This document shows, piece after piece, positions 16,056-58,812 of a stretch of DNA of 64,000 nucleotides. Source of the stretch: Christensenella sp. UBA5489 (GTDB lineage Bacteria > Bacillota > Clostridia > Christensenellales > UBA1242); assembly GCA_002424095.1 (NCBI GenBank), contig DIPL01000014.1:27386-91385 (forward strand), given 5' to 3'. Below the pieces are notes generated by a model. It saw only the letters and a list, made by a program, of their open reading frames with translations. It searched no databases and was not told the origin of the DNA. Position numbers and translations under genes: made by a program. Within the stretch, counting starts at the first letter, position 1. The number at the start of each line of letters is the position of its first letter.

Positions 16056-16649
16056 TTAATCAATGTTTGAATCATTTTGTTTATAGTATTCGCTCACTTT
16101 GACATATTCATCTCTGTCTTTTTTTTGTCTGTTTGGTTTTTCTTTCATTTTACTATTTGGTTTTTCATTCTTTTTAAAACCTGACATTAAATTGAAAATT
16201 GTGCCTAAATTTGAATTATTTTTGCCAAGTGAACCAATTAAATCTTTTTGATTGTTTCCGGCAAGCAAGGGAAGAATATTTTGTAAAGGATTATTCGAAC
16301 TTTCACCCGAATTTCCGCCATTAAAATTTCCGAGCATTTTTGCTAAATTGCCTAAATTCGCCTTATCGCCACCACCGCCATTTAAACCGCCTAACATTCC
16401 AAGCAGATTTCCGATATTCCCAAATGCTCCTTTATTTTCCAAATTATTAGAATTATCAGAGTTTTTGAAATCATCATAATTAAAATTTTGTGTTGTACTA
16501 AACTCATTCGCTGTATTTTTAAAATTGTCAGCGGAATTATTAAAGTTATTGTTGACGCCATTATTAAAGCCATTAGGATAATATGAGAAATTTTTATTTT
16601 GCTCTTTATTTTCCGTTTTTCTAATTCGATTGTTTTTTATGTAATTCAT
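16056..16649 (-). CDS. Asn/Gly-rich low-complexity protein, no signal peptide
   Basis: GGAG SD. Internal repeated motif GN(I/L)GNL..MLG..NGG occurs at least twice. Basic K-rich C-terminus. Confidence 0.5.
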   Translation of the reverse strand: MNYIKNNRIRKTENKEQNKNFSYYPNGFNNGVNNNFNNSADNFKNTANEFSTTQNFNYDDFKNSDNSNNLENKGAFGNIGNLLGMLGGLNGGGGDKANLGNLAKMLGNFNGGNSGESSNNPLQNILPLLAGNNQKDLIGSLGKNNSNLGTIFNLMSGFKKNEKPNSKMKEKPNRQKKDRDEYVKVSEYYKQNDSNID

Positions 16650-16801: not shown

Positions 16802-17200
16802 ATGAAAAAAAGTTTTTATGAGTTCAGTAATCAAAAATTCGAAAAAAACAAAAACACTGAAAAGCAAGATTTTAAAAATTTCCGTCCAACACACGATGCA
16901 CAAAATTCACAAAGTTTTGAAAAACGAAATCATGAAAACTCACATTCTGAGAACTTTCGTCAATCAGAGCAGGATAGTGATTTTGAATCAAAAAAAAGTG
17001 AAATTGAAGAAACGATAAATAAATATCAAGATATGTCGCAAAGCGAACTTCTTTCTAATTTATTTTCCGAAGTAAACAAACAAAAACAGCAGGGCACATT
17101 TGATATTGAAAAAATTGAAAACGCAATTTCAGGACTTGGTGCGTATTTAACAACCGAACAACAAAATAATATGAGGGAAATGTTAAAAAAATTCAAATGA
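16802..17200 (+). CDS. Hypothetical charged protein, translationally coupled to the S8 peptidase
   Basis: AAGGA SD. The stop overlaps the next start (ATGA at 17197..17200). Q/E/K/S-rich with no recognisable domain. Confidence 0.5.
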   Translation: MKKSFYEFSNQKFEKNKNTEKQDFKNFRPTHDAQNSQSFEKRNHENSHSENFRQSEQDSDFESKKSEIEETINKYQDMSQSELLSNLFSEVNKQKQQGTFDIEKIENAISGLGAYLTTEQQNNMREMLKKFK

Positions 17201-18354
17201 AAAATAAAATAGACAAAAATCTAGTTCAAGTATTATCGGTAATTTCATCTTTTCAGGAAGATTTGGAATGTATTATTTATGTCGGCGACTTCGACATTGC
17301 ATTAAAAAATTTAAGTAAAGACAAAATAAAAATTCAAGCGACATTTCCATTTATAAATGCCTTGTCGCTCCAACTCAACCGAAAAAAACTAAACAAACTA
17401 TTAACATATAATTTTGTGAAATATGTTTCAAGTCAGACGCACGTTTTTGCACTGATGAACGTTGCCAAAAAAATCTTAAAAATTGAAGAAAATGCAACTG
17501 GAAAAGACATTAGTGTCGCTTATATAGATACGGGAGTAAGTCCTCATCTAGACTTTGTTCTCGGCGAAAATAGAATTATAAAATTTATAGATTTAATAAA
17601 TAACAGAGTCTTTGCCTATGACGATAACGGACACGGAACATTTGTTTGCGGAGTTGGTTCAGGCAATGGCTTAATGTCGAACAAAAAATATGCTGGAATT
17701 GCACCAAAATCTAATATTGTAGCCATAAAAGCATTAAATGAACAGGGCGAAGCAAATTCGATTAAAATTCTAGAAGCAATGCAATGGATTTATGATAACA
17801 GCGATAAATACGGTATAAAAGTAGTTTGTATGAGTTTCGGAAGTGAACCTCTCGGTGCTAACGACCCCATTATGAAAGGTGCGGAGGAACTTTGGAAAAA
17901 TGGAATCACAGTTGTGGCAGCGGCAGGTAACAGCGGACCAGAATATGAAACAATAAAAAGCCCGGGAGTCAGTCCAAAAATTATTACAGTAGGTGGATTT
18001 AACGATAATCGAATTAATGATTATACCTATAACGAAAAGTTTTTTGAAATTGCAGAATTTTCTTCACGAGGACCAGCGTTAAAACGTTTTAAGCCTGATG
18101 TTATTGCTCCTTCTGTGAATATTGTTTCTTGTGGAACGAACGAACCTTACACTTCACTCAGCGGAACAAGTGTTGCTGCTCCAATGATTGCAGGAGTTTG
18201 TGCACTTTCTTATGAAAAGAATTATAACATTAAGCCCGATGTTTTAAAAAAATTAATAACTGGTTGTTCAAAAGCAATTACCTATAACAATAATGTTGAA
18301 GGCTTTGGAATTCCTGATGTCGAACAATTACTGAATAACAAAGCCGTTTTTTAA
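17197..18354 (+). CDS. S8 (subtilisin-family) serine peptidase, no signal peptide
   Basis: Catalytic Asp (VAYIDTGV), His (DDNGHGTFVCG), oxyanion Asn (AAAGNSGP) and Ser (LSGTSVAAPMIAG). Confidence 0.88.
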   Translation: MKNKIDKNLVQVLSVISSFQEDLECIIYVGDFDIALKNLSKDKIKIQATFPFINALSLQLNRKKLNKLLTYNFVKYVSSQTHVFALMNVAKKILKIEENATGKDISVAYIDTGVSPHLDFVLGENRIIKFIDLINNRVFAYDDNGHGTFVCGVGSGNGLMSNKKYAGIAPKSNIVAIKALNEQGEANSIKILEAMQWIYDNSDKYGIKVVCMSFGSEPLGANDPIMKGAEELWKNGITVVAAAGNSGPEYETIKSPGVSPKIITVGGFNDNRINDYTYNEKFFEIAEFSSRGPALKRFKPDVIAPSVNIVSCGTNEPYTSLSGTSVAAPMIAGVCALSYEKNYNIKPDVLKKLITGCSKAITYNNNVEGFGIPDVEQLLNNKAVF

Positions 18355-50462: not shown

Positions 50463-50638
50463 TTTTAAAACTACTTACGTATATCTTTTTAAATTGTTTT
50501 CTAATGTTTAATAAACTTAATTTGCCGATACAAACGGCTCTTTTTTATATTAAAATTAATTTTCAAAATAAGAATATATACACAATATATTGCATAATTT
50601 TAAGGGCTTAGGAAAAACTAATATTAAGGAGGATAAAA

Positions 50639-50806
50639 ATGAGAGAGATTCTTTTTGGCGTTGCGCTAGGCACTGTGCTTGGGGCGTTATTATATAAGAA
50701 AAATGAATGTGCGAAAGATTTAATAGACCAGGGCGAGCAAATGGTGAAGAAAGAAATTGAAAAAATGGAAAAAGAAAATAACCAAAGTAAAAAGAAAGCA
50801 TCTTAG
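50639..50806 (+). CDS. Small YtxH-like membrane protein (55 aa), absent from the ORF track
   Basis: Strong SD (AAGGAGGATAAAA ATG). It translates to MREILFGVALGTVLGALLYKKNECAKDLIDQGEQMVKKEIEKMEKENNQSKKKAS. A terminator follows. Confidence 0.6.
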   Translation: MREILFGVALGTVLGALLYKKNECAKDLIDQGEQMVKKEIEKMEKENNQSKKKAS

Positions 50807-52857: not shown

Positions 52858-53581
52858 ATATAATGAAACTATCAAACTCATAAAACAAGCACAAAACGGC
52901 GATGAAAAGGCGAAGACTATATTAATTGAGCAAAATGCACCGTTAGTCAAAAGTGTCATAAAAAAATTTAGAAACAAAAATTTGGAATACGATGACCTTT
53001 ATCAACTTGGTTGCGTTGGATTTTTGAAAGCGATAAATAACTTTGACACTTCGTTTAATGTGCGATTTTCGACTTATGTTGTGCCGATGATAATTGGAGA
53101 AATTAAACGTTTTTTACGTGATGATGGAATGATTAAAGTTTCTCGCACTATAAAAACGCAAAACCGTCTTATTTCAAAATTCATACAAAATTTTCAAAAT
53201 AAAAATGCAAAAAAACCAACATTACACGAAATTTCCGAAGAGTTCCAAATTGAAGAGGAAGAAATTGTCTTTATAATGGATTCTTCCAAAATGCCGATTT
53301 CAATTTATACACCGTATGAAAATGAAGAAAACGGTCTTTTGTTAATTGACCGTTATATTCAAAATTATGACAATGAAATTGTATTTGATAAACTTTTACT
53401 TAAAGAAGCATTAAATACTCTTGATGAGCGTTCGAAAAAAATTGTATTGCTTCGTTTTTTTAGAGATAAAACACAAAATGAAATCGCACAGGAGTTGAAT
53501 ATATCGCAAGTTCAAGTTTCACGCTTGGAAAATAGAATTTTAGGAATAATAAAAGAAAAGTTAAAAGTCAGCGAAAATTAA
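52850..53581 (+). CDS. sigF: RNA polymerase sporulation sigma factor SigF
   Basis: The ATG at 52850 overlaps the spoIIAB stop (ATGCTTGA). Region 2 (YDDLYQLGCVGFLKAINNFD) and region 4.2 HTH (TQNEIAQELNISQVQVSRLE) are present. Assigned by operon context. Confidence 0.9.
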   Translation: MLEYNETIKLIKQAQNGDEKAKTILIEQNAPLVKSVIKKFRNKNLEYDDLYQLGCVGFLKAINNFDTSFNVRFSTYVVPMIIGEIKRFLRDDGMIKVSRTIKTQNRLISKFIQNFQNKNAKKPTLHEISEEFQIEEEEIVFIMDSSKMPISIYTPYENEENGLLLIDRYIQNYDNEIVFDKLLLKEALNTLDERSKKIVLLRFFRDKTQNEIAQELNISQVQVSRLENRILGIIKEKLKVSEN

Positions 53582-53607
53582 ATTTTTCTCAATAAATAAT
53601 ATTATCA

Positions 53608-56589
53608 TTAAAAAACGGCAATATACGCAGTCAAAGATTTATTATTTTCATATTTATTTTCATTAACAATAGAATTTGACTTACCAAAAGAGCCTGCATT
53701 TTTTAATCTTTGTTCATATTTTATTTTATTTATATAATTAAGTTTTTCATTTAATTTTTTAATTTTTCGATGCGAATTACTGCGATTGCTATAAATTTTA
53801 TTTATCTTACTATAATCAGCTTTACTTTTTATTCTTTGATTATCTATGTCTGTTTGATTATTTTTATCCTCATCAACATTTCTTTCATTAATGATTTCCT
53901 TATCATTTTTTACTGAATCAGTATTGTCGTCTTTTTGACTTACATCAATTTCTTCGTTTTCTACTGTTTGTGGCATTGTGCGACTTTTGAAAGGTTTACT
54001 AGCCATTTCACAGGAATTAAAAGTTAAATTCAACTTATTTTGTAGTCTACGTCCCTTTTCAAATTTAGGCAAAGAAAGTAGGTTTTCTTTTATTTTATCA
54101 TCATTGTTTTTTAACTCATTGTTTGCTTTATTTCTAGAATAGTCATTAAAAGTCAAGGGCGTCGAAGGAAATTTATTTTCCGGTATTATGTTTTTTTCAG
54201 CATTTGTAGAATCTTTCAATTCTGTATTGGTTTTATTTCTAGTATTATTTTCATTGTTTATTATTTTGGAATTCGTTGAATTTGAGTTTTGATTTATTGA
54301 ATTATTGTTGTTATTTACGTTATTGTTTAAATTTTTACTATTATTTAAGTTATTATTATTGTTTATAGTCCTATCATTTCGTGAGTTAATTACATTTCTA
54401 TCACTTAAATTTTTTTCATTTTTTAATGTTCCATCCTCATTATTATTAATATTATTATTTACATTATTTTCAATTTCATTTTTATTATTTAAATCTCGTC
54501 GATTAATATTGTTTTGGTCATAAGGATTAAAATTTTCATTATTATTAAAATCATCATTTACATTATTATTTACATTGTCTTTAATATTATCTAAATCTTT
54601 TTCAAAGTTTGGCAAAGTTTTATTATCTTGTCTATTTAGATTATTAAAATTATCTTTAACACTGTCTTGATTGTTTAAGTCTTGATTGAAATCATTTTGA
54701 TTATTTTGGTTACGATCTTGATTGAAATTTTGATTGAAATTTTGATTGAATTCTTGATTGTAGTTTTGTCCCAAACTTTGATCGAATTCTTGATTATAAT
54801 TTTGATATTGATTATTCAAATATTCTCGTAGTAAAATACAATCAGGTCCAAAGCAAAATCCATAAAGATAACAATCATTGCCGTCAATACAAGGCTCTCC
54901 GTATGTGCGATAATTATAAAATAATGCAAATTGTGGGTCTTGGTTTGGTATATTTTGCGTATCCTGTAAGTCAGGCGAGTTAGGCTCTATATCAGGTTCT
55001 ATATTGGAATTTTTATCATTTATATTGTTATTTAAGGTATTGTTGTTCTTATTATTTTCATCCATAATGTTTGTATCGTTTGTATTAGCATCATCAGGTT
55101 TAGCATCAACATCCGTTACATCATTTTGATTTATTCTATTTAGATGATATTTTTTGTTGATATTGTTTATTTTGTTGGCATAATTGCCGTAACTATAATT
55201 ATAAGGGTTAGGGCAGGAAGGGCAATATGAATTATTTAACACATTATAATTCCCATCAATACATGATTCAATTTGTAATAAACTGTTTAGAATAGACTGT
55301 AAATTGCAATTTCTGTTATCCATACATCCCAAAAGTCTAATATATTTTGAATTTAAGGCATCTGTATTTTCGCCATTTTTTGTTCTTAATGATTTAATTG
55401 ATGCCAATTCATTATTTAATTCTGCTTTGTTCAAATTAATTTTATTGAAACTTGTATTTATATTATTTAATAAATCGTTGATTGCTTTTATTTGATTTTC
55501 ATCAAGTTTTATATCACCGCCTTTGATTTTATCCGCTAATTCTTTAATATATGCAATATTTTCATTTATTGATTTTATTAGATAATTACAATTTTTGTTG
55601 CATTCAACACATGAGTTGGAATTATTTTTTGTGTTTAATAATTTATTACCGTTTGTATTTGTCGCTGTTTTATTAATTAAATAATCATTGTTTGTTCTAA
55701 AATCATTATTATTTGGATTTGAATTTTTTGAATTGTTTAAGTTATTTAAGTTATTAGAGTTATAATCATAATTGTTGAAATTGTTATAATATCTATTATT
55801 ATCTTTTAAATTATTAATTCGATTTCTATAAAGACGATTGTTGTACTGTTTATAGTTTCTAACGCTACTATTTTCATCATTATTATTTTTAGTTACATTT
55901 TCGTTTCTATCACTGAGAACATTATTATTGATATCTCTATTTTCTCTATTTATATTCCTATCTATATTTTCAGCTTCGTCATTTTCATTTCTATATATGT
56001 TTTCATTATAATCCGTTTCATTATCATTATAGAAATTGCCTGCTTCTCGATATGTGTCAATATTTGAGCCCCAATATCTATTTCCCCAACCATTGCCATA
56101 ACCGCCGACGCCGTTGCCAAAATTACCGCCTAAATTATTACCGTAATTTCCGCCGAAATTGTTGCCATAGTTTCCACCATAATTCCCGCCATAATTGTTA
56201 TTGCCATAACCTCCAAAATTACCACCAAAGTTATTTCCACCAAAGCCATTATTAATACCGTTAACACCACCATATACACCATTTCCGCCGAATCCATTAT
56301 TGAAGCCACGGTTATAAAAATTGCCATAGGTATCGGTATTGCGATTAAAATTTGCAACATCAAATCTATAACCGCCATTTAATGCAACTTTCACTAAATT
56401 ATTATCACCGTTAAAACCATTAAATGTTATATCCTCGTTTTCAACATTATTTACTTTTTTTAATTCAGAAGACAACTTGTCCATCCTGCTATGAAGATTT
56501 GAACTTATAGCACCGTTTGAATTTGAATCACAGCCTGTAAAAACAAAGCACATCATAACTGCTATAAATCCGATAAAAAATTTTTTCAT
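53608..56589 (-). CDS. 993-aa asparagine-dominated low-complexity lipoprotein with G/Y/N repeats and two Cys-containing islands
   Basis: AAGGAGA SD. Lipoprotein signal (AVMMCFVFTGCDS). GGNYGGNYGNNFGGNYGNNLGGNFGNG repeats, NQNFNQNF repeats, and the islands CVECNKNCNY...CPSCPNPY and GEPCIDGNDCYLYGFCFGPDC. Confidence 0.7.
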   Translation of the reverse strand: MKKFFIGFIAVMMCFVFTGCDSNSNGAISSNLHSRMDKLSSELKKVNNVENEDITFNGFNGDNNLVKVALNGGYRFDVANFNRNTDTYGNFYNRGFNNGFGGNGVYGGVNGINNGFGGNNFGGNFGGYGNNNYGGNYGGNYGNNFGGNYGNNLGGNFGNGVGGYGNGWGNRYWGSNIDTYREAGNFYNDNETDYNENIYRNENDEAENIDRNINRENRDINNNVLSDRNENVTKNNNDENSSVRNYKQYNNRLYRNRINNLKDNNRYYNNFNNYDYNSNNLNNLNNSKNSNPNNNDFRTNNDYLINKTATNTNGNKLLNTKNNSNSCVECNKNCNYLIKSINENIAYIKELADKIKGGDIKLDENQIKAINDLLNNINTSFNKINLNKAELNNELASIKSLRTKNGENTDALNSKYIRLLGCMDNRNCNLQSILNSLLQIESCIDGNYNVLNNSYCPSCPNPYNYSYGNYANKINNINKKYHLNRINQNDVTDVDAKPDDANTNDTNIMDENNKNNNTLNNNINDKNSNIEPDIEPNSPDLQDTQNIPNQDPQFALFYNYRTYGEPCIDGNDCYLYGFCFGPDCILLREYLNNQYQNYNQEFDQSLGQNYNQEFNQNFNQNFNQDRNQNNQNDFNQDLNNQDSVKDNFNNLNRQDNKTLPNFEKDLDNIKDNVNNNVNDDFNNNENFNPYDQNNINRRDLNNKNEIENNVNNNINNNEDGTLKNEKNLSDRNVINSRNDRTINNNNNLNNSKNLNNNVNNNNNSINQNSNSTNSKIINNENNTRNKTNTELKDSTNAEKNIIPENKFPSTPLTFNDYSRNKANNELKNNDDKIKENLLSLPKFEKGRRLQNKLNLTFNSCEMASKPFKSRTMPQTVENEEIDVSQKDDNTDSVKNDKEIINERNVDEDKNNQTDIDNQRIKSKADYSKINKIYSNRSNSHRKIKKLNEKLNYINKIKYEQRLKNAGSFGKSNSIVNENKYENNKSLTAYIAVF
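54718..54813 (-). repeat. Eight consecutive 12-nt (4-codon) imperfect tandem units inside the N-rich gene
   Basis: On the + strand each unit begins ttg (ttgattgaaatt x2, ttgattgaattc, ttgattgtagtt, ...). They encode NFNQ/EFNQ-type repeats. Confidence 0.7.
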
Positions 56590-56795
56590 AAAAATTCTCC
56601 TTAAAATTTTATTTTTTCAGTTAAAAAAATTATATTATTTGTTAATTTTATTATTTGTAGATTTAAAAATTTTATGTAAATGTTTTTATAAAAATATAAG
56701 AATTATAATGGTAGAAAAATGAAAAATTTATGTTTTAAATTATAAATTAAAGGCAATAATTTTATAAGTGATTAATCAAATCAAAGGATTTTATT

Positions 56796-57242
56796 ATGGA
56801 TATACAAACAAGAAATCAAAAATATAATCAATATGTAGAGGCAAAAATGCCCAAAACAAAAAATTGGCCGAGTTTATTTAATTCTTTTTGGGTAGGTGGG
56901 CTTATTTGTGTTTTAGGACAAGGAATAAATGACTTGATTTTATTTGGATTTCCGACAATTGCCGAGCAAACAGCATGGGCATATACGCTTGTAATTTTAA
57001 TTTTTATGGCATCATTTTTAACGGGTATTGGGGTTTATGACCGCATAGGGCAGTTTGCGGGTGGCGGAACAATTGTGCCAATTACAGGCTTTTCAAATTC
57101 GGTTACAAGTCCAGCTCTTGATTTTAAAAGCGAGGGAATAATATTTGGAATGTGCGTTAAAATGTTTACAATAGTAGGACCAGTGCTTGTAATTGGTATT
57201 GTTGCAAGTGTTGTCGTCGGTTTAATTTATTTACTAATATAG
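56796..57242 (+). CDS. spoVAC: Stage V sporulation protein AC
   Basis: MPKTKNWPSLFNSFWVGGLICVLGQ and GGTIVPITGFSNS motifs, four TM segments, followed by spoVAD. Confidence 0.9.
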   Translation: MDIQTRNQKYNQYVEAKMPKTKNWPSLFNSFWVGGLICVLGQGINDLILFGFPTIAEQTAWAYTLVILIFMASFLTGIGVYDRIGQFAGGGTIVPITGFSNSVTSPALDFKSEGIIFGMCVKMFTIVGPVLVIGIVASVVVGLIYLLI

Positions 57243-57261
57243 TTAGCATTAAAAGGTGGTT

Positions 57262-58263
57262 ATGAAAAACTTTATCGGACAAACAATAGAATTTAAAAAT
57301 AAACCGAAAATAATCGGTAATTATTCAATTGTCGGTCCAAAAGAAGGGAAAGGGCATTTTGGTAAATTTTTTCATTGCGTTATGGATAATGATAGGTTTG
57401 ATGAAAAAACTTACGAAAAAGCTGAAAAAAAAATGATTGAAAAAGCACTTAGCGGGGCAATTAAATCAGCAGGCTTAAAACCTGAAAAAATTGATTTGTT
57501 TTTAGCAGGAGATTTGCTTAATCAAATAATAAGTTCAAGTTATGCTGCAAGGTCGTTTAATGTGCCGTATTTAGGATTGTTCGGTGCATGCTCAACAATG
57601 GCGGAAAGTTTAGCAATTGGCTCTTGTTTTATAGATGGAAAATATTTTGATACAGTGGCATGTGCCACCGTTAGTCATTTTTCAACAGCAGAAAGACAGT
57701 TTCGTTTTCCACTTGAACTCGGAAATCAGCGACCACCAACTTCACAATGGACAGCAACGGCAAGCGGTTGTAGCATACTTTCTTTGAAAGGGAAAGGACC
57801 ATATGTTTCAATGGCGACTTTCGGAAAAGTTACCGATTTTGGAATACACGATGTAAACAATATGGGTGCAGCAATGGCACCGGCGGCAATGAATACATTA
57901 GTTTCTCATTTTACAGATACAAAGACAAAACCTGATGACTATGATTTAATAATAACGGGTGATTTGGGTAAAATTGGAAGCGAAATTTTAATTGATTTAA
58001 TGGAGGATAAGGGCTATGTTCTTGGAATAAATTATTGCGATTGTGGTCAAATGATTTATAGAAGAAGGCAAAAACCTTTAATGGGTGGGAGTGGTTGTGG
58101 TTGTAGTGCTTCGATTTTAAATTCTTTTTTTATTGAAAAATTGAGAAAAAGAGTTTATAAAAAAATCCTTTATATGGCAACAGGTGCACTTTTAAGCACA
58201 ACTGCAACACAGCAAGGCGAATCGATTCCTGGAATTGCTCATGCCGTTGTAATAGAAAATTAA
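57262..58263 (+). CDS. spoVAD: Stage V sporulation protein AD
   Basis: Thiolase-like fold (GACSTMAESLAIG, GGSGCGCSA), size of ~334 aa, and operon context. ATG at 57262 follows GGTGG. Confidence 0.9.
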   Translation: MKNFIGQTIEFKNKPKIIGNYSIVGPKEGKGHFGKFFHCVMDNDRFDEKTYEKAEKKMIEKALSGAIKSAGLKPEKIDLFLAGDLLNQIISSSYAARSFNVPYLGLFGACSTMAESLAIGSCFIDGKYFDTVACATVSHFSTAERQFRFPLELGNQRPPTSQWTATASGCSILSLKGKGPYVSMATFGKVTDFGIHDVNNMGAAMAPAAMNTLVSHFTDTKTKPDDYDLIITGDLGKIGSEILIDLMEDKGYVLGINYCDCGQMIYRRRQKPLMGGSGCGCSASILNSFFIEKLRKRVYKKILYMATGALLSTTATQQGESIPGIAHAVVIEN

Positions 58264-58449
58264 TTTAAAAAAACAAATCACAAGATGATAAAAGATTCAT
58301 TCAATCTTAAATGGAAATTTATCAATATGCGGTGTAATATGCGTAACAAAGTACAACATATTGTGAGTAAAAAGTGTACTATGTAAGATATTAGGTACTA
58401 TGCAAAAAGAAATATTGTGATTTTAATGTGAGAAGTAAAAGGAAATAAT

Positions 58450-58812
58450 ATGTTATCTTATATTTGGATTTTTTTAATAGGTGGCTTTGTTTGTTCCATA
58501 GGACAATTATTAATTATTAAAACAAAAATGACATCTGCAAGAATTTTGGTTACATTTGTGATGGTCGGAGTGGTCTTGGAAACATTTGGAATTTTTGACA
58601 GTATTGCATCCTTTGCGAAAGCAGGAATTAATGTGCCGATTATAGGATTTGGTGCATCAATGACAAAAGGTGCAATTGCCGGCGCGGAAGCAAGAGGAAT
58701 AATTGGTGCCTTCGCGGGCGGTTTAGAAGCCGTTGCTGCTGGTGTTGCTTCGGCAGTTTTATTTGCATTTATTTTTGCACTTATTTTTAAGGCAAGGACA
58801 AAAAAGGATTAA
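58450..58812 (+). CDS. spoVAE: Stage V sporulation protein AE (SpoVAEB-type)
   Basis: IFLIGGFVCSIGQLLI and VPIIGFGASMTKGA motifs in a 120-aa membrane protein. Confidence 0.88.
   Translation: MLSYIWIFLIGGFVCSIGQLLIIKTKMTSARILVTFVMVGVVLETFGIFDSIASFAKAGINVPIIGFGASMTKGAIAGAEARGIIGAFAGGLEAVAAGVASAVLFAFIFALIFKARTKKD

Follow-up and report, generated by a model that had tools for sequence, protein, structure and literature searches.

The window analysed here is a stretch of 64,000 nucleotides (nt) from contig DIPL01000014.1 of Christensenella sp. UBA5489, a genome of 0.96 Mb that is 92% complete and has approximately 30% G+C; unless another contig is named, all coordinates refer to this window. Within it we studied a reverse-strand open reading frame (ORF; 53608..56589, 993 codons plus stop, ATG start), which lies between sigF and the spoVA operon and which we regard as a candidate spoVA-linked spore lipoprotein gene. 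Pfam assignments give the gene order spoIIAA, spoIIAB, sigF (forward strand, ending at 53581), the ORF (reverse strand), spoVAC (from 56796), spoVAD, spoVAEB, yunB, and ftsK. As described in the initial annotation of this DNA, the stop codons of the ORF and of sigF face each other at a distance of only 26 nt (53582..53607), and this convergent junction has no hairpin; in a scan of 53300..57000 no terminator-like hairpin was found. On the other side, a ribosome-binding site, AAGGAGA (56596..56602, reverse strand), precedes the start codon by 6 nt, and the divergent partner operon spoVAC-spoVAD-spoVAEB occupies 56796..58812 of the forward strand, an arrangement (assigned by Pfam) that is linked to the gene in each locus examined. 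The spoVAD-spoVAEB spacer (58264..58449) measures 186 nt in the window and only approximately 15–30 nt in several relatives.

The product starts with MKKFFIGFIAVMMCFVFTGC followed by DS, i.e., with MKK, 14 hydrophobic residues and an FTGC lipobox containing Cys20, the residue predicted to be lipidated. This signal peptide with its lipobox (residues 1–20; 56530..56589, on the reverse strand, as are all further features of the protein) is kept in nearly all full-length family members, in accordance with the lipoprotein signal noted at the outset. Moreover, the genome encodes both Lgt (PF01790, E=1e-62) and the signal peptidase II LspA (PF01252, E=2.6e-33). Judged by its signal peptide and lipobox, the protein is thus predicted to be a lipidated and cleaved bacterial lipoprotein. 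It contains 15 clustered cysteines (among them 327/330/334, 422/428/443/456/459, 567/573/579/584, and 860), and its asparagine content of 26.4% is the highest among the genome's ORFs of at least 150 amino acids (aa; median 6.8%, 99th percentile 12.9%); hence, AT bias alone is insufficient to account for it. Next in Asn content within the genome is an ORF of 197 aa (16056..16649, reverse strand; 23% Asn, N/G/F-rich), which has no signal peptide and is located near a subtilisin-type protease gene (17197..18354).

The Reading Frame Is Genuine and Maintained by Selection

A repetitive, AT-rich stretch such as this one could represent an assembly artefact or a decaying pseudogene. The low complexity and the abundance of repeats would be in line with such an explanation, and the copies of the gene in two congeners do show assembly gaps or one in-frame stop. 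However, Logan contigs from three independent metagenomes (fermentation, 2014; landfill, 2022; soil, 2025) match 53400..56900 (up to 56810 in one case) without any difference or gap, which confirms the assembly across the repetitive gene, a point that the initial annotation had marked for checking. A fourth sample contains a strain variant, whose indels of 6, 135, and 189 nt are all multiples of three. The 17 strain single-nucleotide polymorphisms (SNPs), all within codons 293–906, comprise 10 synonymous and 7 non-synonymous changes; given that 34% of possible transitions are synonymous, this amounts to a synonymous excess (p=0.03), with a rough ratio of non-synonymous to synonymous substitution rates (dN/dS) of ~0.36. 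The internal tandem repeats differ in length, but almost all of their periods are multiples of three, as seen for the codon-phased NFNQ-type repeat in the Asn-rich tail (54716..54806; periods of 12, 24, and 36 nt). The identical assemblies, the in-frame indels, the synonymous excess and the codon phasing of the repeats together show that the reading frame is kept by selection, the low-complexity part included. In addition, over 200 genomes carry an intact orthologue. Mis-assembly and pseudogene explanations are therefore rejected, as far as sequence data allow, and we give them next to no credence; the gene is real and under selection. The public runs carrying 53400..56900 are fermentation, landfill, soil, anaerobic-digester, and biofilm metagenomes, and the organism is accordingly not restricted to the gut.

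The Gene Is Ancestral to Its Host Family and Linked to spoVAC

The host family belongs to the Clostridia, and has genomes of 0.75–1.6 Mb; the relatives that bear names are uncultured metagenome-assembled genomes, including Candidatus Caccopulliclostridium gallistercoris. Homologues were found in six of seven congeners and in other genera, and in the first 10 loci they always lie between sigF and spoVAC. A profile of the conserved core (approximately residues 325–450) retrieved 205 clusters (50% identity) from 1.84 billion proteins, while a broader core profile detected the gene, as a single copy each, in 217 of 301 family genomes and in 43 of 54 genera; no paralogue families were found. In a class-wide search of 400 evenly sampled genomes, clear matches were confined to the window's own family, accompanied by two borderline ones outside it, one of which (G202) lacks the spoVA context. 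Among 11 profile-negative family genomes, 8 hold in the same slot a divergent secreted protein or lipoprotein ORF of 400–650 aa, rich in N, Q, and T, with weak full-length similarity to the core. Two family genomes are devoid of spoVAC, and the core profile is negative in both.

Across approximately 23 genera, the gene is arranged head-to-head with spoVAC in all 29 loci examined (the 10 first loci and 19 further genera). In these 19 genera spoVAC adjoins the gene without exception, whereas the sigF operon does so in 14; since the pairing with spoVAC persists in the five genera without an adjacent sigF, the linkage is to spoVA and not to sigF. The gene is therefore ancestral to the whole family and was inherited at its present position. 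Presence and synteny in relatives, which the initial annotation had proposed to examine, are thus borne out, but its description of the gene as inserted between the two operons is not, because the same position, divergent from spoVAC, is conserved family-wide.

A Small Helical Core Combined with Long Segments Predicted to Be Disordered

AlphaFold, run with shallow orthologue alignments, returned only two confident parts, namely the conserved N-terminal helix (approximately residues 25–45; 56455..56517; predicted local distance difference test, pLDDT, 80–95), which is also evident in the alignments, and a three-helix bundle (approximately residues 311–445; 55255..55659), which is likewise recovered by the profile. 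Modelled alone, the bundle reached a pLDDT of 83 and a predicted template modelling score of 0.75, and the same helices appeared in the longer model. It carries a CxxCxxxC motif at its start and Cys422, Cys428, and Cys443 inside. The glycine-, tyrosine- and asparagine-rich (G/Y/N) block, the Asn tracts and a second Cys island (residues 563–587, four Cys; 54829..54903) all scored below 50. Hence, of the two ordered-looking Cys-bearing islands proposed initially, the first falls within a confidently folded domain, whereas the second is predicted to be disordered, is poorly conserved and is kept in the closest relatives only.

The G/Y/N block reported in the initial annotation is present as a low-complexity segment, also rich in F (residues 92–173; 56071..56316; tandem periods of 12 and 24 nt), and is flanked by two copies of a short motif: FNRNTDTYGNF (residues 81–91; 56317..56349), in which N-R-N-x-D-T-Y-G is invariant among eight aligned orthologues, and SNIDTYR (residues 175–181; 56047..56067), recognised from alignments and motif counts. 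In general form, [R/K]N[I/T]DTY (NxDTY), it occurs 263 times in 149 family proteins, compared to 1.3 times in shuffles; at least one copy is found in 125 of the 149 members and at least two in 99, and pairs are often 10 residues apart. Nearly all full-length members share a lipobox around residue 20, the helical core and a block rich in G, Y, and F, yet the order of the modules differs among clades, the block varies in position relative to the core, and the frames range from ~240 to ~1600 aa. Conservation resides in the helices and in the NxDTY motifs, while the G/Y block, like the second Cys island, is poorly conserved. Toward the C-terminus, the short motif IKENLLSLPKFEKGRRL (residues 833–849; 54043..54093) recurs in same-genus orthologues. 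A further conserved motif, NSIVNENKYENNKSLTA (residues 972–988; 53626..53676), forms the very C-terminus in many orthologues and is followed in the window by five extra residues, YIAVF; the terminal SIVNENKYENNKSLTA is kept within the window's genus. We considered whether the NxDTY or the C-terminal motif could be a sorting signal used by several proteins and rejected this, as each is found, genome-wide, only in this protein. A reading of the C-terminal NEN..NNKSLTA as a degradation tag of transfer-messenger RNA was likewise rejected, since the tag is ADNDVRPLAVAV.

No curated family in Pfam, NCBIfam, or PHROGs matches the protein above threshold, and Foldseek, together with profile searches against PDB sequences and Pfam, returned only generic helical bundles or coiled coils as fold or sequence relatives in the PDB. 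These results agree with the early impression that the protein is unrelated to any known one. In a word-indexed protein search with residues 300–600 no relative was found, the results being swamped by Asn-rich candidates, and public records label the members "hypothetical protein" or, by automatic rule, "Lipoprotein." One sub-threshold candidate, NCBIfam NF045650 (CD1247 N-terminal domain), was discarded, with 17.6 and 21.2 bits against a cut-off of 30 and with none of 10 diverse members matching; no literature on CD1247 was found. Similarly, PF09580 (Spore_YhcN_YlaJ) matched neither the protein nor any of the 10 diverse family members, and the GerD family gave no match in Pfam scans and no chain among the PDB profile matches up to E=10. 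[R/K]N[I/T]DTY is a new short motif that defines the family, and the core is a new, uncatalogued domain.

A Forespore-Type Promoter Is Predicted Upstream of the Gene

The region between the gene and spoVAC measures 206 nt in the window and approximately 100 nt in many relatives. On the reverse strand it contains the element ACATA-N17-AATAATA (56649..56677), which is conserved upstream of the orthologues and resembles forespore-type (sigmaF/sigmaG-like) promoters. In the family, this element consists of a -35 box [A/G][A/C]ATA, a spacer N17/18 and a -10 box [C/A]A·A[C/A]TA, located 14–59 nt 5' of the start codon, and the A-T-A of the -35 box and the A..A.TA of the -10 box hardly vary across 29 orthologous upstream regions. 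The sigmaG consensus of Bacillus subtilis is GHATR-N17/18-CAHWHTA; the window element departs from it at the first base of each box. Exact matches to this consensus are found in 6 of the 29 regions (shuffle mean 0.18), matches to RHATR-N17/18-CAHWHTA in 16 (shuffle mean 1.05), and matches to a relaxed, data-derived two-box pattern in 28 (shuffle mean 4.4). On the opposite strand, the same regions contain three relaxed matches and none for the other four patterns.

It was reported that sigmaE and sigmaK promoters combine a -10 box of the CATA type with ATA or AC at -35, that a G just 5' of the -10 box is associated with sigmaF-type promoters, and that the sigmaF and sigmaG consensus sequences of Clostridioides difficile are similar to those of B. 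subtilis (Saujet et al., PMC3789822). The overlap of sigmaF and sigmaG has been stressed as well, and the spoVAC operon is listed as forespore-controlled in C. difficile (Soutourina et al., PMC7438776). In our set, neither the sigmaE consensus (ATA...CATAcanT; shuffle mean 0.31) nor the sigmaK consensus (AC...CATAnnnTA; shuffle mean 0.35) fits any of the 29 regions, and no sigmaA-type promoter stands out upstream of the gene. A sigmaK reading of the upstream ACATAAAAT was also rejected, since CATA is unconserved (GAATA or AAATA in many genera), a correctly spaced AC is missing, and none of the 29 regions fit. For the divergent spoVAC operon, a promoter-like element, GTTT(T)A...G·CAATAAT (56732..56760, forward strand), was recognised by eye in all of the first 10 orthologous regions; it has the G immediately 5' of the -10 box that Saujet et al. 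connect with sigmaF-type promoters.

The first ten orthologous promoter sites were combined into a matrix, which was then used for a calibration scan of the whole genome. Besides the lipoprotein gene, the top matches lie upstream of Pfam-confirmed genes for YtfJ, Ku, rubrerythrin and an S11 D-Ala-D-Ala carboxypeptidase (dacF-like). In B. subtilis, ytfJ, ykoV (Ku), and dacF are members of the forespore regulons. The matrix also scores high a type IV secretion system (T4SS) pilin gene (PF18895; contig C3, ~86,500, forward strand) and the gene of a 3999-aa lipoprotein (contig C19, ~121,050, forward strand), so its specificity should be taken as moderate; either these two genes are sporulation-controlled or the matrix is limited in specificity. 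A small YtxH-like ORF of 55 aa (~50590..50806, forward strand; contig C20, ~77,976) is preceded by GCATA-N17-GAAAACTA, which matches the forespore-type element well (score 15.2). Collectively, the promoter is predicted to be of the forespore type, and we leave the choice between sigmaF and sigmaG aside.

The promoter and the position of the gene bear directly on whether the product might instead be a vegetative surface lipoprotein or adhesin under pressure from phages or the host to evolve rapidly, in which case its place beside spoVA would be a frozen accident. Rapid divergence, in-frame length variation between strains, the broad range of frame lengths and low-complexity repeats resembling those of variable surface lipoproteins would all suit such a protein. 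However, position and orientation are kept in approximately 23 genera despite otherwise rearranged genomes, the gene is single-copy and without paralogue families, and the conserved promoter is of the forespore type, with no sigmaA-type candidate standing out. We consider this explanation very improbable, and the adhesin alternative raised in the initial annotation is accordingly not supported.

The same annotation had also regarded the product as a candidate structural or matrix component of the spore envelope. Indeed, a Gly/Tyr-crosslinked coat or envelope matrix protein, or an amyloid- or prion-like assembly formed via the Asn tracts, would fit the G/Y/N composition with its 26% Asn, the location among sporulation genes and the status of the G/Y/F-rich block as a family feature. 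Coat proteins are mother-cell products of sigmaE or sigmaK promoters and have no export signal. An export signal and a lipobox are therefore at odds with coat assembly in the mother-cell cytoplasm, and among the 29 promoters there is no sigmaE or sigmaK match. Moreover, the G/Y block and the Asn tracts are predicted to be disordered, vary in length and position and are missing in some positional orthologues, while conservation lies elsewhere, in the helices and NxDTY motifs. Hence, the likeness to Gly/Tyr-rich coat proteins and prion-like Asn-rich domains concerns the composition of two segments, the least conserved ones, in a protein that differs from these by its export signal, its lipobox and its forespore-type promoter. 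The proposed tie to sporulation stands, on account of position and promoter, but a coat or crosslinked-matrix role is improbable in our view.

Discussion

Taken together, the conserved lipobox and the forespore-type promoter place the protein, by prediction, on the outer face of the inner spore membrane, and the invariable divergent pairing of its gene with spoVAC-AD-AEb in the family suggests a role with the SpoVA channel. We consider a forespore-made lipoprotein of the inner spore membrane probable; that it works with SpoVA is a narrower claim, which we favour only tentatively. What we infer from these observations is forespore expression, the site at the membrane and, most of all, the SpoVA partnership. 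In the sequence of events that we propose, a sigmaF/sigmaG-type promoter, back-to-back with that of spoVAC-AD-AEb, would activate the gene while the spore develops, the signal peptide would carry the product through the inner forespore membrane, and Lgt and LspA would lipidate Cys20 and remove the signal. The lipid anchor would then hold the protein at the inner spore membrane, on its outer side, in the compartment that houses the SpoVA dipicolinic acid (DPA) channel, the germinant receptor, the germ cell wall and the cortex. There, the N-terminal helix and the three-helix bundle may constitute the working head, docking on or organising SpoVAC/SpoVAEb as an accessory, cap or tether, while the G/Y/N block with its NxDTY motifs and the Asn tracts could serve as disordered spacers or as a gel-like or wall-contacting extension.

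The nearest parallel is NJ2 (SpoVANJ2), a YhcN/YlaJ-type lipoprotein of the spoVA2 locus of Bacillus anthracis and Bacillus cereus, which co-purifies with C2/D2/Eb2, is needed for efficient DPA import and, by prediction, sits as a cap over the extracytoplasmic side of the channel (Yu et al., mBio 2026, PMC13059800). In both cases a lipoprotein gene is physically linked to spoVAC-AD-AEb, and forespore expression, predicted for the family described here, is a shared trait. However, the window protein has no PF09580 match and possesses a three-helix bundle instead of the YhcN/YlaJ domain; it is also 2–5 times longer and differs by its G/Y block, its NxDTY motifs and the great length of its disordered tracts. 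Proteins of the YhcN/YlaJ type carry Asn/Asp-rich linkers after the lipobox. Their homologues were detected in none of 16 sampled family genomes, compared to 4 of 10 in sister families, which leaves room for a replacement.

Several points weigh against a SpoVA partnership. The gene is divergent from spoVA, whereas the NJ2 gene lies inside its operon, and Pfam and PDB searches detected no similarity of the core to NJ2, YhcN, YlaJ or any solved structure. An NJ2 homologue is missing from the spoVA1 loci of B. subtilis and B. anthracis and from the spoVA operon of C. difficile, for which capless transport was suggested, and C. difficile SpoVA works without a cap (PMC13059800); in principle, SpoVA can thus do without a partner. 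Surface-exposed proteins, too, typically diverge fast and vary in length, and the public runs carrying the gene sequence are DNA metagenomes in all cases. The promoter call is a consensus similarity in DNA of 70–76% A+T, with only the six exact sigmaG-type matches and with a matrix that scores the T4SS-pilin and 3999-aa lipoprotein genes high as well. Finally, on the basis of linkage alone, a lipoprotein with a general role in the germination apparatus would be indistinguishable from a SpoVA partner.

A general role of this kind is the main competing explanation, in which a GerD- or YlaJ/YhcN-like lipoprotein of the inner spore membrane, not specific to SpoVA, would help to arrange or stabilise the germinant receptor, the enzymes of cortex lysis or properties of the membrane, and the linkage to spoVA would reflect shared forespore regulation only. 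The reasoning on location applies to it unchanged, and the family has retained one GerA-type receptor, with GerAC detected in 12 of 16 genomes, and has no YhcN/YlaJ (0 of 16). GerD of Bacillus is a forespore-made alpha-helical lipoprotein on the inner spore membrane, with sigmaG-type expression, that acts as a germinosome scaffold. The window protein resembles it in having, by prediction, a small all-helical domain lipid-anchored at the outer face of that membrane; GerD, however, comprises ~180 aa, has no low-complexity regions, is unlinked to spoVA and shows no sequence similarity detectable in Pfam scans. Further precedent comes from YhcN, YlaJ, YutC, and CoxA of B. subtilis, forespore lipoproteins that affect germination efficiency but do not act on DPA transport, and from YlaJ of B. 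cereus, which works with SleB (PMC13059800). These inner-membrane lipoproteins also have low-complexity linkers, but their PF09580 domain is missing from the window protein and from the 16 sampled family genomes. Against a general germination role, the pairing with spoVAC outlasts the rearrangements that remove sigF, the loci examined show no similar association with ger or sleB genes, and Pfam scans revealed no homology to GerD or YlaJ. We therefore regard it as rather unlikely and retain, with the reservations given above, a lipoprotein working with the SpoVA channel as the best reading.

A more specific version of the SpoVA partnership, which we offer as speculation and consider unlikely as it stands, is that the family represents an independently evolved extracytoplasmic SpoVA subunit, whose helical head would cap or gate SpoVAC/AEb and whose NxDTY-flanked G/Y block and Asn tracts would act as a gel-like or wall-contacting tether between the channel and the germ cell wall and cortex.

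The family keeps sigF, spoVA, yunB, ytfJ, a GerA-type receptor and other sporulation genes. A six-frame search detected no gene for alpha/beta-type small acid-soluble spore proteins (SASPs; PF00269) in any of 41 family genomes, which represent 40 genera and in nearly all cases reach a completeness of at least 95%; B. subtilis, included as a control, gave a positive result. In the window genome, tblastn with approximate B. subtilis SspA and SpoVT queries gave no match either. The family may therefore be a spore-former lineage without canonical SASPs, and the lack of a detectable alpha/beta-type SASP gives this uncultured spore-former family with genomes of ~1 Mb an unusual-looking sporulation toolkit.

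In conclusion, the gene belongs to a protein family that is undescribed in sequence and that is, in kind, a non-homologous spoVA-linked spore lipoprotein, with a function that we infer from context. The movement of DPA into and out of spores is an active question, and the first extracytoplasmic partner of SpoVA, NJ2, was described only in 2026; the family presented here is a concrete second candidate. It is lineage-wide and single-copy, and its presence in more than 200 genomes provides enough orthologue pairs for co-evolution analysis. Since the family is unrelated to NJ2 in sequence and fold, a shared job would imply independent invention: channel caps would have arisen at least two times from unrelated folds, and the family would offer a handle on the gating of minimal three-gene clostridial SpoVA systems.

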